A stretch of 63,425 nt of DNA, counting the filler, from Bigelowiella natans CCMP2755 (Eukaryota > Protista > Cercozoa): NCBI GenBank assembly GCA_000320545.1. It is 4 parts of 4 records of this genome, joined end to end, with 100 filler letters (N's around TTAATTAATTAA, not from the genome) between each part and the next. Parts side by side here need not be neighbours in the genome. Positions count along the whole stretch, not along the records: positions 1 to 15,588 come from ADNK01003566.1; positions 15,689 to 47,403 come from ADNK01002050.1; positions 47,504 to 52,966 come from ADNK01003216.1; positions 53,067 to 63,425 come from ADNK01000628.1. One strand, given 5' to 3'. Position 1 is the stretch's first letter; each line of letters begins with the position of its first letter. Below are positions 2,408 to 60,803 of this stretch, one piece after another. The translations under genes were made by a program, and so were the position numbers. Below the pieces are notes generated by a model. The model had not been told where the DNA came from. It did no database searches and saw only the letters and a program-made list of their open reading frames with translations.

Positions 2408-3700
2408 AGTGATGCCTAATAATCTAATCGGTGTGGGTGGAAGAGAGCATCTACATCTACAAGATAAATAAGTGCACGATAGAAACGAGTTTTTAGGGAT
2501 CGGGCGCTACTTTTCGATGAGCACATGTTCGACAAGACGAATTTCTCTCTGTGTGTGTCTCTAGATAGTCACAAGGTCTCTTCCACATGTAGTACACTCT
2601 GTTTTAGTGTGACGAGACGTTTCGGGTTTCGGGCTCGATCCCGCAGGTTGCTGAATTCCACACCGCACATAGCTCTAGATCTAGACAGGCTTCTCCTTGT
2701 GAACACACAATATCTCTTCATTTGCATTCTGGTTATGCAATGCATGTGATTTCGTGTACTACGTGTGTAGAAAAATGAAATCCAATGCAATTGCAACGTT
2801 GTGGGCCCATCTAGCCATCTAGAAGGTGCTGCGTGTGCTGCAATTCGTCTCAGCGGCGCCAACAATTGAAAGAATGCTGTTTCAAACTGCAGTTTGTTCA
2901 CATCATCATTGCCGCGCGCTGACATTGTGGGCTCTGATGCAGAGTAGCGGATATAGAGTGCCAGATAAGAACACAAAGTTGCCCGCACGGTCCATCACAT
3001 TTGCAATTTCTGCATGTAGCAATGAGTCTATAGGTGCAGTGTGGGTCCGTGCTAGCGCACAATCATGCGTGTCTAGCGTGTGCCTTGCTCGTTGGACCGC
3101 GAAGGTGCAATGATGTCACATGCAAGTCATCACGTTCTCGCGTTCTAGCGTTGCTAGCTTGGTAGCAGTGCGCCATCATGGCATGGCTAGACGCACAGCT
3201 CCAAAAGTGAACACGATGAACGCCCACCACCACAACACCTTGCATTGTTGGCGCTGTCTAGCTGTGGCCGCTGCATTGCACAGCGACGTGAGGATGACGA
3301 CCATCTAGACGTGCTGAACAAGTTTGATTGCGATTCATCACATCCGTCTTGCACCTTGTGCGTGGGTGTGTGATAATGGTGCGTGCTTGGCAGTGCGATG
3401 CATCGCTACCGCGTTTGCCTGCGTTCTGGCGTTGTCGATCATGTCGTTGCACGCTGGCTCGCTAGCTGTGCGTGCACATGCATGTGTGCACATGCACGTT
3501 GTCCACAGTGAATTCATTCGCCGTGCAATCAACCTACTGATGCGAAATAGCTAGCATTGTTGCACGAAATGAGTAGCATTGTTCCACGACAATTTTGACG
3601 TTGCGGTGTTCATTTTGACGTGAACACATTTTGAGTCAACCTTCCGTATTATATTTGAACATTTGAGACCCTTCGGCTGGGAACAAGGTTACATATTCCC

Positions 3701-5176
3701 CTAACTGGCTCGGTGTTCAAGAAATTCTTTAAGTTCTTCTTCATTTGCTCCATTGGCCTTGAGTATGTAAAAAGCCATCTTTTCAGTCCGTATTCGACCC
3801 CACCTGAAAAAAATTAATTTCGTAGAGTTCTCTAACTCTTGTAATATCACCATTCAGTACCATTATTGCAATTTGATCTCACCTGTTCACAATAATGCCG
3901 ACTACAATTAAATGTAACATCCACAGGGCTGTCGTCACTCGGAAAAAAAATGCATATCTACAATTACAAGGAAGATGAAATTGATTTTTATTTATCATTT
4001 TGGCTGGTGAGTCACTTACGTTGGTGTGTCGACAGCGTATGCGTTCTTACATCGTTCAGTACGATGCATTGCGAGATAGATACCCTAGAATGAAAATTAA
4101 CTGTGATAATCTACAACACATAATTAATACATTATGATCCGTACATATAATGTACCCATACGAACATCCCCACAACGATTGCATCCGTTACAGCAGCAAT
4201 AACAGTTATCAAGCAGGTACTGCAACAGAATGAAATTATAAATTAATATATTGCACCATTGAGGGTCTAGATGATGTAATCACCTCTGATATACTTTTGT
4301 TCCTACATAACAACCAGAGACCACTGCATCGATGCAAAATTGTCATAAAACAGACTTAATATTATATGCAATTAGAATGATACTTGTAGCAGAGAGGGCG
4401 ACTACACTGAGGGCTATGTACCTAATTGGAGAGTTTTAGTGAAAGATGTGATTGTTACGAACTCCTAGCGCACTTACTCAAAGGTGCCATCAGATTTATT
4501 AGATGATGGAGATGAAATGTGCTCTATATCTCCCTTTTGCGTACACGTCAAATTCCAATTTTTTAAGACGACTGGCAAAAGTAGTAAGCTCAGCAATGTC
4601 ATTTGTAGTTTTGAGTGTTCAACATTGTTACCTATAGCCCAAGCGGTATATGCCAAATATGTAATCATTAAGAATATTAGTCCGTGCACAAATATGAACA
4701 CTGGCCATCTACGCACATTAAGTTGGAATTCATTCTAGCATGACACTTTCCTGCGAACAACTTACCCTGCATAATTTCGGAAGCAACAACAAGCTCTCCG
4801 TCTACCTCCAGATGATTTTTGAAAAGAACTTCTCGAATTTTGAGTAGCTACGGCAACATCAAATTTTCCTCGACATGTGGCACTTGTTCGACTTTTCTGC
4901 AGTGATGTGTAAATTGTTGTATTATACAGTAACAATAAGAAAATTGATCGTAGTGACCTTGTTGAAGTGTCCATCATGGTCCAACTGCATGATCAAATCG
5001 TTCCCCTGAACACAGGATTTTCGGCCACTCTCAATAGTAGCGAGACTTGGAGATTTAAGGTTGCCTATTGTATCCAAACTCAGGCAGAGTCCACTTTCTT
5101 TCTCGCAGCGTTTGACATCTAGATCTTGTGGAGGGGATTTCATCCTAATATCAGCAACTCCGTCCTCCATGATCAT
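3701..5176 (-). CDS. Multi-exon hypothetical multi-pass membrane protein
   Basis: Minus-strand exons with hydrophobic segments (RWPVFIFVHGLIFLMITYLAYTAWAI; MTLLSLLLLPVVL; TCLITVIAAVTDAIVVGMF). Last exon reads WGRIRTEKMAFYILKANGANEEELKEFLEHRAS* with stop at 3701-3703. Family not recognised; 5' exon structure uncertain. Confidence 0.5.
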
Positions 5177-5582
5177 CGTGCACTCAGCGCCTGTGAATCA
5201 TGCGATTTTTGGCTTACGTCAAGGGAAAAGTTGGGCACATTGCTTTAAATCAATGGTATTCATAATGTGAGACAACTACTTAAGATTTCGTGGGAAACAA
5301 CGTAGTTTTTTTGCAACACATACATCTGAAAGCATCTATTTGATAAATAAATTAGTGTTGCAATGGCTCATTCCTCCTTAAATCCCCTGCATTTCGTAGC
5401 AGAATGCGTCTAGTATCATCTATTGGAGCCTTCAATTTTGTTCCATACAGGTAGGTAGGTGGTGTAAAGGCAGCTTTAGGGAGGGAGGGAAGGAAGAGGA
5501 ACAAACATCACCACGTCTGCTGTTCACAATTGGTCCAGACCATGACAGTATAAGAAGTCAATTTCCTATGCCTTGTCAGACA

Positions 5583-58400: not shown

Positions 58401-59926
58401 TCGATCACAAATTATCAACAACTTACTTCTAACACAAACAACGGCAATGGCTGCATTATAATTCTTAGGACAAGTGGAAAACCACAGATTTGCAAGAATA
58501 CTGCCGGTACTCCTCCTCTCCTCCTCCTAGTATTCCCACCTCTATCGATGCTACTGCTGCTGCTAGATATAATGATGTCGAGAGTGAGTAATGCGCCAAA
58601 TGACATCATTCATGGCAACAACGTCTGTCAGCATTTGAAAATAAGAAAGAAAACACCACATGTGCTACTATTGAATATTATTAATTTAGACGATGATGAT
58701 GATAAGTACTGGAGTATTACAATCAGCCATGAATTAGTCACTCACTCACGTGTAATTTCTATTTATTGCAGAAGATGGTTTCGAGTTTACTGCACCGGTT
58801 AAATCAATGGGTACGAAGAAGCGAGAGTTGTTTATGATGATGATGATGATGATGATGATGATCATGATCATGATCATGATTTAACATACATCATCATCCG
58901 TCTTTCATCAAGAGAAGTTAATGTTCCTTCTTTTCACCCAGTAGTATAGTATTATACCTTCTTCATATCGATATGCAGCAGCAGCAGCAGCAGCAGCAGC
59001 AGCAGCAGCAGCAGCCTAATCTTGATTGTTGTTGTACTACTTACTTACAATAGGAGTTCAAAATAAATATGGATTGTACCACATCGTTGGAAACGTGTGG
59101 GAGTGGGTCAGGTGCGTGCTTGCTGCTGCCAATATATTTTGTATCGTCGATTCCAGTCATCACCACTTCACTCACTCACTCACTCACTCACTCACGGTAG
59201 TGTTGCAAAGGAATGCACTCTGCCGTATCAACGCTACAATAATAATATTTTCAATGATAATAATAATAATACGTAGCTGCTCAAAGCTACTAAATATTAT
59301 ATATATATATATATATATATATATATATATATATACATGATCAGTGATTATTGGTCGACAGTACACAATCCTGAGCCAGAGGTAATTTCCGTTGATTATT
59401 CTTTACGAGATGCATCATCACCATGTGGAACAATGTTAGTTGCATCGAACAACCTATTAAGGATTTATTCAAGTGTTTGGTAGTAATAATGACCTAGTGC
59501 TGTTGTTTGCTTTCACACCATCGTTTGTTACATTCATTCAGGTAGATCCTAAAGGCCCTGAAAGTCACGCATCTAATGAAAGAGTTAAAAAGGGTACTAC
59601 TACTTACTACTACTACCACTACTACTACTAGTTACTATTACTACTACCACGTATATTACTACACACAGACGATTCTGTCAACAAGCTGCAACAATCTAAT
59701 TCCGATTTCTTCCTACTAAAATTTAGGTGGATCTTTTCTTTGTAATGAAAAGTTTTGCAATCGATATCGAGTAGCTGCAAGGTTGCTGCTGAATATGTTT
59801 TAATTTGTATAGATGATGATCGTGTGTGACAACATTAATGAAAATTATTAATGCGTTAGGAGTCACAACACTGCTGACAGCGGGGCCAGTAATCTTGGTT
59901 TTCGGTGCGCAAAAAGTGATAATTAG
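55440..59926 (+). CDS. SUMF1: Formylglycine-generating enzyme / sulfatase-modifying factor 1 (many small exons)
   Basis: Signal peptide plus CGC motif; TFWMGS, EVSN..F..FV.ATGY, WSFVFE, WWLPVEGAYW, HPVVHVSWNDAVAYCKW, RLPTEAEWEYAARG, FPWG, GLYHIVGNVWEW, KKGGSFLCNESFCNRYRVAAR and SNLGFRCA. Stop 59924-59926. Confidence 0.93.
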
Positions 59927-60803
59927 GAAGCACGCAGAGTTGTAAATATATTCAACCTCCAAGTTCATTATGATATGATACTAATCTTATACGATATCTC
60001 AATTGGACCATTGATTGTACTGCTACATTTTCCTACTGGAAATCGTGCACGCACGGTCGTGATCGTATAATCGATTGAGCGCAATGCGCATCTAGCTACG
60101 CTGCCATACAGTTTCACCTCTTTAAATGTCTCTGCTGACTATGACACATACACACGCACGCACACGCACGCATTGTGTACTACTACTACTACTACTACTA
60201 CTACTACTACTACCGTGCATCGACCTGGTGGTAGTAGTGATTATTGTACGGTGATCTAGCGTGCTTATTGCTACGGAGACAAATTACAGTCTTTGCGATG
60301 CTGTGGAGTAGTCAATTTCCTTGCTCATGCATAACTAGATTGAAAACGGATTGCGTGGCCGCAGATACCAACTGCGCATGGTGGGCATTAGTGCACTTAC
60401 GCTACAAAACACGTCGTAGTAATTTTGAGGTTCACTGCTAGACTGTCAGAGCCCAGCCATGCATTTTGGCGACTGGATCGAATGTTGGCGCGTACTAGCG
60501 TCATAGCACGAGTTAGCTGCACATATTAGCCTACTTTGAATTCAGCCCAGCACACATATTGCATCGATCTAGACGTACAAACAAAAGGAAATTAATAACA
60601 CATGAAAAATGTGAGTCTTCAAGAAGCTATGTAGCATAAGCGTACGTAGTAGCTTGCATGCAGCAGTATCCACATACAGCTGCTGCTACATAATAGAAAC
60701 TTATTTAAACATCATAAATGTTTTATGAATATGTCATGATCTCATTTCTCTTCCCTATAATGCTGCTGTTTTTTAAGAGACCCCAACCTCTGAGCATAGA
60801 GAT

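Follow-up and report, generated by a model that had tools for sequence, protein, structure and literature searches.

The closest described system is a mutator of the same species. In mutation-accumulation lines of Bigelowiella natans, the main text of a preprint (bioRxiv 10.64898/2026.01.13.699255) places 231 of the 302 nuclear substitutions in two regions of integrated viral DNA, where the changes were nearly all TpA to TpG or CpA, appeared in some lines only, and arose de novo at ~1000 times the background rate. The targets of this hypermutation are integrated nucleocytoplasmic large DNA virus (NCLDV) and virophage DNA, the larger being a transcriptionally silent, single-copy region of 186 kb. 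The authors proposed an adenine deaminase (ADAT2-like) acting against foreign DNA, found 124 clusters of at least three TpA-poor kilobases, and linked coding sequences poor in TpA with domains of DDE endonuclease and reverse transcriptase; the same text leaves target-finding open and reads the mutator as immunity against foreign DNA. Here we describe islands of TpA loss in host intergenic DNA of B. natans CCMP2755 (assembly GCA_000320545.1). The analysis covered one window, a stretch of 63,425 nucleotides (nt) made of parts of four records joined by filler, with 13 spacers and ~16 genes in intron-rich eukaryotic DNA. On balance, we read the islands as a footprint that the chlorarachniophyte TpA>TpG/CpA mutator has accumulated on intergenic DNA unprotected by active chromatin.

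Composition and bounds of the eroded islands

The original prediction had placed a strong TpA-loss signature at 2560-3600, 7380-8710, 44050-45450 and 49450-51990, and a further occurrence at 31206-32050, 3' of a gene labelled Zn2Cys6; all five bore out. The observed/expected ratio (o/e) of TpA outside the word CTAG (non-CTAG TpA) was 0.38, 0.42, 0.20 and 0.21 in the first four and 0.22 in the fifth, with CpA/TpG o/e at 1.54-1.87. CTAG itself was 2.6-5.2 times as frequent as expected in the four convergent islands and 0.3 times in 31206-32050. When the islands were pooled, the values were TpA 0.44, CpA/TpG 1.67, CTAG 3.2, CC/GG 0.56 and AA/TT 0.97. The longest runs free of non-CTAG TpA measured 655, 482, 469 and 411 nt, against 109-188 nt in all 30 first-order Markov simulations of the window, and a Markov score trained on the islands by leave-one-out recovered five of five. 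The leading tetramers of the pooled islands (TGCA, TGTG/CACA and CATG) are what TATA yields when every TA becomes TG or CA. The cores make up 10% of the window sequence. The islands, none of which has a strand, are the following:

2800..3560: eroded island S1, within the convergent spacer 2407-3690, with partial erosion from ~2560 (TpA o/e 0.38, CTAG 3.45 times expected, recovered by the Markov score, fitted TpA factor 7)
7600..8600: eroded island S2, within the convergent spacer 7130-8714, the CTAG-richest, with TpA kept in the first 400 nt past the left stop codon
44030..45400: eroded island S3, beginning at the stop codon of a giant gene (44029), with a (CTAG)n array (44734-44761), a hairpin (44202-44382) and a fitted TpA factor of 14
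49450..51900: eroded island S4, with CTAG-rich belts near both ends, a CTAG-poor interior, and a stretch of 655 nt (50438-51093) free of non-CTAG TpA
31204..32000: eroded island T1, in a tandem spacer, TpA-free over 31204-31686, with neither CTAG excess nor fitted CC deficit

The TpA-free stretch of T1 starts ~220 nt upstream of the 5' end of the ABC transporter transcript (30982); more TpA is left nearest the upstream stop codon, and erosion is most complete on the promoter side. Tandem (CTAG)n arrays occur within two islands (44734-44761 and 49990-50011). Arrays of (TA)n and (TAC)n are frequent in the introns of the window and absent from the island cores.

Stationary, transition-only context models on a fixed purine/pyrimidine skeleton were fitted by composite likelihood, with differences in fit taken as a guide only. 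For the cores the fitted TpA factor came to 7-16; gene bodies gave 1.3, promoters 1.7 and short convergent spacers 1.4-2.2. TpA mutation alone was insufficient as a model, and so was exemption of CTAG alone, which predicted 33 CTAG on both strands where 132 were observed; whole-word stability predicted 134, and an added TAA>TAG inflow 110. A general AA>AG process was rejected, since it fitted at 1.55 times with little gain, against 10-12 times for TA. Exempting the A of TAG fitted worse than the alternatives, and one of the TG/TA differences described below, at 31855, lies in a TAG context. CC>CT, TAA>TAG and whole-word CTAG stability are indistinguishable by composition.

The cut-offs of the preprint were approximated from its main text (Rho TpA <=0.43 and CpA+TpG >=1.52 per kb, strand-symmetric base frequencies). 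The 1-kb windows at 31001, 44001 and 50001, corresponding to T1, S3 and S4, passed these values, and those of S1 and S2 failed because CTAG was counted. At most two windows in a row passed in ten of ten phases, against the three consecutive windows of the cluster rule, so all of the cores lie under that rule.

Geography of TpA loss and a second component

Eight further spacers, also unstranded, complete the set:

21162..21947: W1, a short convergent spacer rich in CTAG and poor in CC that keeps TpA; RNA contigs extend to 21348 (+) and 21711 (-)
25735..26440: short convergent spacer W2, CC-poor and CpA/TpG-rich, TpA largely kept; 3' RNA reads of both genes cover the spacer
59926..60772: short convergent spacer W3, CC-poor, CTAG moderate, TpA kept; gene ends called from sequence
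5174..5581: divergent control D1, without the signature
19218..19981: divergent control D2, without the signature
22704..23125: divergent control D3; RNA 5' ends at 22753 and 23059 leave 306 nt untranscribed
32877..33829: divergent control D4, the longest (953 nt), without the signature
54578..55439: divergent control D5, TpA-rich low-complexity DNA with 8 CTAG

Non-CTAG TpA per kb fell with spacer length across the 13 spacers (rho -0.68, p=0.01), in agreement with the earlier remark that longer spacers are more eroded. Erosion was found in all five spacers longer than 1.1 kb and in none shorter than 1 kb, and the seven convergent and five divergent spacers did not differ in TpA per kb (p=0.43). 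As the divergent spacers are all shorter than 1 kb and the eroded ones all longer than 1.1 kb, orientation and length are confounded. Within 400 nt of a stop codon, the four long convergent spacers held 34-43 non-CTAG TpA per kb, and 5-12 farther off; short convergent spacers had 72 per kb and divergent ones 56. The fraction TpA/(TpA+CpA+TpG) was 0.033 at 400 nt or more from the stop and 0.209 closer, by a cut that was set after inspection of the data and over sites that are not independent. The proposal that TpA loss follows gene 3' ends was not supported as stated: loss is weakest beside stop codons, strongest more than 400 nt away, and absent from short convergent spacers.

The divergent spacers had been described as ordinary in TA content, which agrees with their non-CTAG TpA o/e of 0.60-1.15. 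A weaker signature had been described at 21280-21880, 25740-26400 and 60250-60700, and here only part of the claim stood. TpA was not depleted (o/e 0.93, 0.87 and 0.97), and per base it was higher than in the divergent spacers (163 in 2262 nt against 181 in 3233 nt, p=0.017), but CpA/TpG was in excess (1.35-1.62), CC/GG was deficient (0.44-0.52), a feature absent from the original prediction, and CTAG was in excess in two of the three.

TG and CA counts did not flip across the convergent spacers (877/1787, p=0.45), indicating no strand bias. The last introns flanking the spacers kept TpA in eight of eight cases (ratios 0.18-0.50, boundaries set by eye), and the final 600 nt of the giant gene showed no significant reduction of synonymous TpA (p=0.19). 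As introns are largely neutral, their retention of TpA favours targeted mutation over selection. The view that geography rather than a common repeat identity appears to guide targeting was supported, since eight spacers share no sequence beyond microsatellites, the T1 core is single-copy, and introns and promoters keep TpA. Among the four mechanisms put forward with it, lack of a protective mark fits, whereas terminator zones, read-through and R-loops fit TpA loss poorly.

A second component behaves differently. The ratio (CC+GG)/GC was 0.51-0.84 in the seven convergent spacers, 1.17 in T1 and 1.95-4.36 in the five divergent spacers, a complete separation of convergent from divergent (p=0.0025) that also held for the short convergent spacers alone (p=0.036). 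For the deficit of C after C, all seven convergent spacers gave a fitted factor of 1.8-3.6, T1 gave 1.08, and promoters and gene bodies lay at ~0.9. The orientation effect is therefore genuine where CC/GG is concerned but does not extend to TpA loss, and constraints on promoter sequence could explain part of the contrast. A CTAG-rich belt mostly accompanies the CC/GG deficit. In long spacers CTAG numbered 6-22 per kb within 800 nt of stop codons and 2 per kb deeper (a class formed by S4 only), it was absent from 1509 nt of 14 RNA-supported introns, and it reached 9 per kb in the divergent D5. No preferred CTAG spacing was found at distances up to 40 nt, nor any longer conserved motif among the compared spacers. 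Targeting by terminators, read-through or R-loops may still apply to this CC/CTAG component.

Two palindromes were observed in these spacers. W1 carries a CTAG-rich near-palindrome (21828-21867), and DNA contigs of two or three other loci align as far as 21866 before diverging, so the genome has a similar word elsewhere. D2 carries a perfect palindrome of 36 nt (19434-19469).

Gene ends, gene copies and the weighing of explanations

RNA data covered positions 18500-34500, the range for which gene expression is known. The statement that the listed spacers lie between convergent 3' ends was upheld on two kinds of evidence: RNA contigs or reads support convergence at 21162-21947 and 25735-26440, and splice-site orientation with open frames points to it at the other five. 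Pfam matches in the window comprised RTRAF (21951-22703), a TPR protein, an ABC-D transporter and a translation GTPase, the named relatives of which are eRF3, the closest named one by identity (67%) being from the chlorarachniophyte Amorphochlora amoebiformis. Judged by motifs, other genes may encode PP2A, a sulfatase-modifying factor, a helicase and a glycosyltransferase. The giant gene (34250-44029) has open frames of 715, 992 and 682 residues without a Pfam match. Introns with RNA support measured 54-218 nt, near the mean intron length of 184 nt given for B. natans and well short of the 546 nt given for A. amoebiformis (PMC12730881).

Some gene calls bear on particular spacers. The gene to the right of 49450-51990 was rejected as eRF3. 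The C-terminal 106 residues of the eRF3-like protein P0042 had no match in the window and probably sit in the gap 52966-53066, and 52021-52960 appears to hold a separate minus-strand gene, called from sequence only and ending near 52021. The eRF3-like frame starts (54540-54577) with a hydrophobic, serine-rich leader that the Amorphochlora relative (P0045) has too; the gene is possibly a copy targeted to the periplastid compartment. A TA-microsatellite-rich segment without the signature (15921-16221) may be an intron that connects the long gene below with the helicase-like gene; if it is instead a short spacer in tandem arrangement, it would be an uneroded 3' end.

The intronless gene that had been called Zn2Cys6 (32103-32876) has the matching cysteine pattern, and Pfam gives a weak UBA match only. 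At least two further variants of it exist, one a near-identical protein (P0036) and one seen in the reads of RNA run X21; in run X15 no RNA contig lay over the coding region, and a metagenome scan with the protein returned 0 loci among 54 candidates. The X21 reads differ from the window at the following sites in T1:

31853, 31855 and 31860 (31853..31860), + strand: three TG/TA sites, all TG in the window, with G>A in 11/11, 11/11 and 9/9 reads of X21

The fourth non-coding difference in this run is CG/CA, at 31825, and three more differences fall in the coding end of the zinc-cluster gene. None was listed for the other covered genes of 18500-34500, and two small insertions are common to the DNA contigs and the X21 reads, indicating that the reads come from another copy or allele and not from editing. 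Three TG/TA among four non-coding differences has a chance probability of 0.004-0.02, and the three lie on one strand within 8 nt; such a trace would resemble that of a processive burst. At the variant sites of the gene upstream of T1, no RNA read carried the letters of the window, a weak hint that expression is lower from the eroded copy. DNA runs X1 and X10 showed no substitution against the window over the 16 kb of 18500-34500. The core 31204-31850 and the spacer 21162-21947 sit within single unbroken DNA contigs at single-copy depth, the T1 core in two DNA runs.

A mutator that acts slowly or in bursts on intergenic DNA without promoter or transcription-coupled chromatin would account for this pattern. 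Protection may reach ~200-300 nt upstream of transcription start and fade ~400 nt past the stop codon, hence an exposed core would be expected only in spacers longer than ~1.1 kb, which in a gene-dense genome would be mostly convergent or tandem. The time-averaged rate would be ~7-15 times background, far under that of the viral inserts. CTAG would be spared, which needs whole-word stability or extra inflow, and a second, milder bias against CC/GG would mark the zones downstream of stop codons. The candidate enzyme is the adenine deaminase that the preprint proposes. What the window itself shows are the islands, their bounds, the dependence on length, the strand symmetry, and the intact introns and promoters.

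Several points, besides the distance cut chosen after inspection, weigh against this reading. The 362 nt between the ends of the W1 RNA contigs are not eroded, so that being untranscribed is insufficient alone unless read-through spans them. Divergent DNA at 400 nt or more from the ATG keeps TpA (17/41 sites, 215 nt), which fits promoter protection and also a true 3' requirement. Erosion runs from the stop codon onward at S3 and at the left of S4, and at T1 it extends into the transcribed 3' region. The 13 spacers of one window include no long divergent spacer and do not show independence from orientation. The direction of the three TG/TA differences is unrooted, the polarity being assumed from the preprint (bioRxiv 10.64898/2026.01.13.699255). 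By arithmetic from its rates, ~19 A/T>G/C changes fell outside the viral regions, while islands mutating at the viral rate over 1-10% of the genome would yield 328-3276 changes, and at 12 times background fewer than 1. The islands are therefore compatible with slow or past activity only.

It is possible, though we doubt it, that the islands are what is left of old insertions, transposon or viral, that persist only in roomy 3' spacers and that the mutator saw as foreign, erasing their homology. An insertion would account for the eroded spacers being the long ones, the edges are sharp at some stop codons, and the link drawn in the preprint between TpA-poor coding sequences and the domains of DDE endonuclease and reverse transcriptase points the same way. 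The imperfect hairpin of ~180 nt in S3 (44202-44382) scored 52.5 bits against a null maximum of 39.7, with a DNA folding z of -2.4, and contains part of the residual TpA of the island; a weak inverted pair surrounds the S4 interior, but its score equals the best null score. Comparison of the eight spacers found nothing shared beyond microsatellites. A search of 37 reading-frame fragments from S1, S3, S4 and T1 (S2 not included) gave no transposon or viral Pfam family, only four weak matches, all under curated cut-offs, and Rfam gave 0 matches. The T1 core is single-copy in two DNA runs, and erosion of five of five spacers above 1.1 kb, with a graded fall-off from stop codons, also speaks against insertions. 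Old elements erased by the mutator itself could nonetheless underlie the islands.

Recruitment by termination or convergent read-through, with double-stranded RNA, small RNA or R-loops past the poly(A) site drawing the mutator to the zone where the polymerase disengages, appears unlikely. All islands are found on the 3' side of one gene or more, true termination could take place in the zone 400 nt or more beyond the stop, and the CC/GG separation of convergent from divergent spacers and the CTAG belts within 800 nt of stops agree with it. TpA loss shows no strand asymmetry, however, and short convergent spacers, where overlap is likeliest, keep TpA; T1 is fully eroded without convergence, most completely beside a promoter, the RNA reads at the variant sites of its upstream gene lack the window's letters, and the main target in the preprint is 186 kb of silent DNA. 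Highly improbable, in our judgement, is that selection and not mutation produced the composition, with DNA free of TpA and rich in CTAG serving as a boundary or nucleosome-positioning element. CTAG does act as a conserved word (132 observed, 33 under exemption, 134 under whole-word stability), but it has no preferred spacing and belongs to no longer conserved motif, and the exact mutational process is measured in this lineage. Exclusion by active chromatin is thus best supported, ahead of foreign insertions, then termination-linked targeting, then selection.

The mutator is known, described in 2026; the geography of its targets and the CTAG exception were not found in print by the literature search. 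If the reading is correct, the mutator is more than an antiviral defence and also erodes host intergenic DNA, as a natural eukaryotic adenine-directed process that raises GC in neutral DNA. If host gaps carry the same scar and its borders depend on the distance to transcription starts and stop codons, the rule of targeting could be examined at thousands of loci from the genome, annotation and mutation tables already available, and the CTAG exception is a clue to the context preference of the enzyme or to a protective mark. More speculatively, and rather improbably, a GC-raising DNA editor could be on by default in all DNA unshielded by active chromatin, antiviral hypermutation being one case of it, with base-marked or protein-bound CTAG words forming belts past 3' ends that record or set the borders of edited domains.

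Comparison with known systems

Fungal repeat-induced point mutation (RIP) acts in the context CpA>TpA and likewise produces regional, dinucleotide-specific transitions that leave compositional islands. Its direction is opposite, as TpA is lost and GC raised here (pooled TpA 0.44, CpA/TpG 1.67), and it needs repeated DNA, whereas two DNA runs show the T1 core as single-copy. Polymerase eta makes A>G errors at WA motifs in somatic hypermutation and thus shares A>G after T, but AA>AG reached only 1.55 times in the islands, with AA/TT o/e at 0.97. Deamination coupled to transcription or R-loops would be expected to leave a strand asymmetry, and the TG and CA counts show none.

Fission yeast forms heterochromatin at the terminators of convergent genes, and kinetoplastids place base J at convergent strand-switch regions. 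Such marks at convergent 3' ends could fit the CC/CTAG component, although to our knowledge neither erases TpA, and here short convergent spacers escape TpA loss while a tandem one shows it. Among 80 loci of distant eukaryotes from an RTRAF alignment scan, 16 of 1644 windows were TpA-poor and CpA/TpG-rich, and CTAG was in excess in none (highest 1.04 times); being distant, these loci are uninformative on this organism. The literature search returned a single preprint on TpA in the lineage (bioRxiv 10.64898/2026.01.13.699255) and no methylome of it. DNMT6 is reported in B. natans (PMC9998398), and on a term look-up the species is not mentioned in PMC12695648 or PMC12344493.

The main text of the preprint contains no occurrence of CTAG, orientation, promoter or terminat-, though its supplementary tables could already show the CTAG context. 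The islands resemble the viral hypermutation that it describes in B. natans in losing TpA and gaining CpA and TpG on both strands, in the same lineage. They differ in their targets, which here are host intergenic gaps of 0.8-2.5 kb without sign of foreign origin, and in the rate they would imply, ~10 times background against 1000 times in the viral inserts. Further features that set them apart are the sparing and enrichment of CTAG, the depletion of CC/GG and island bounds that follow gene edges.

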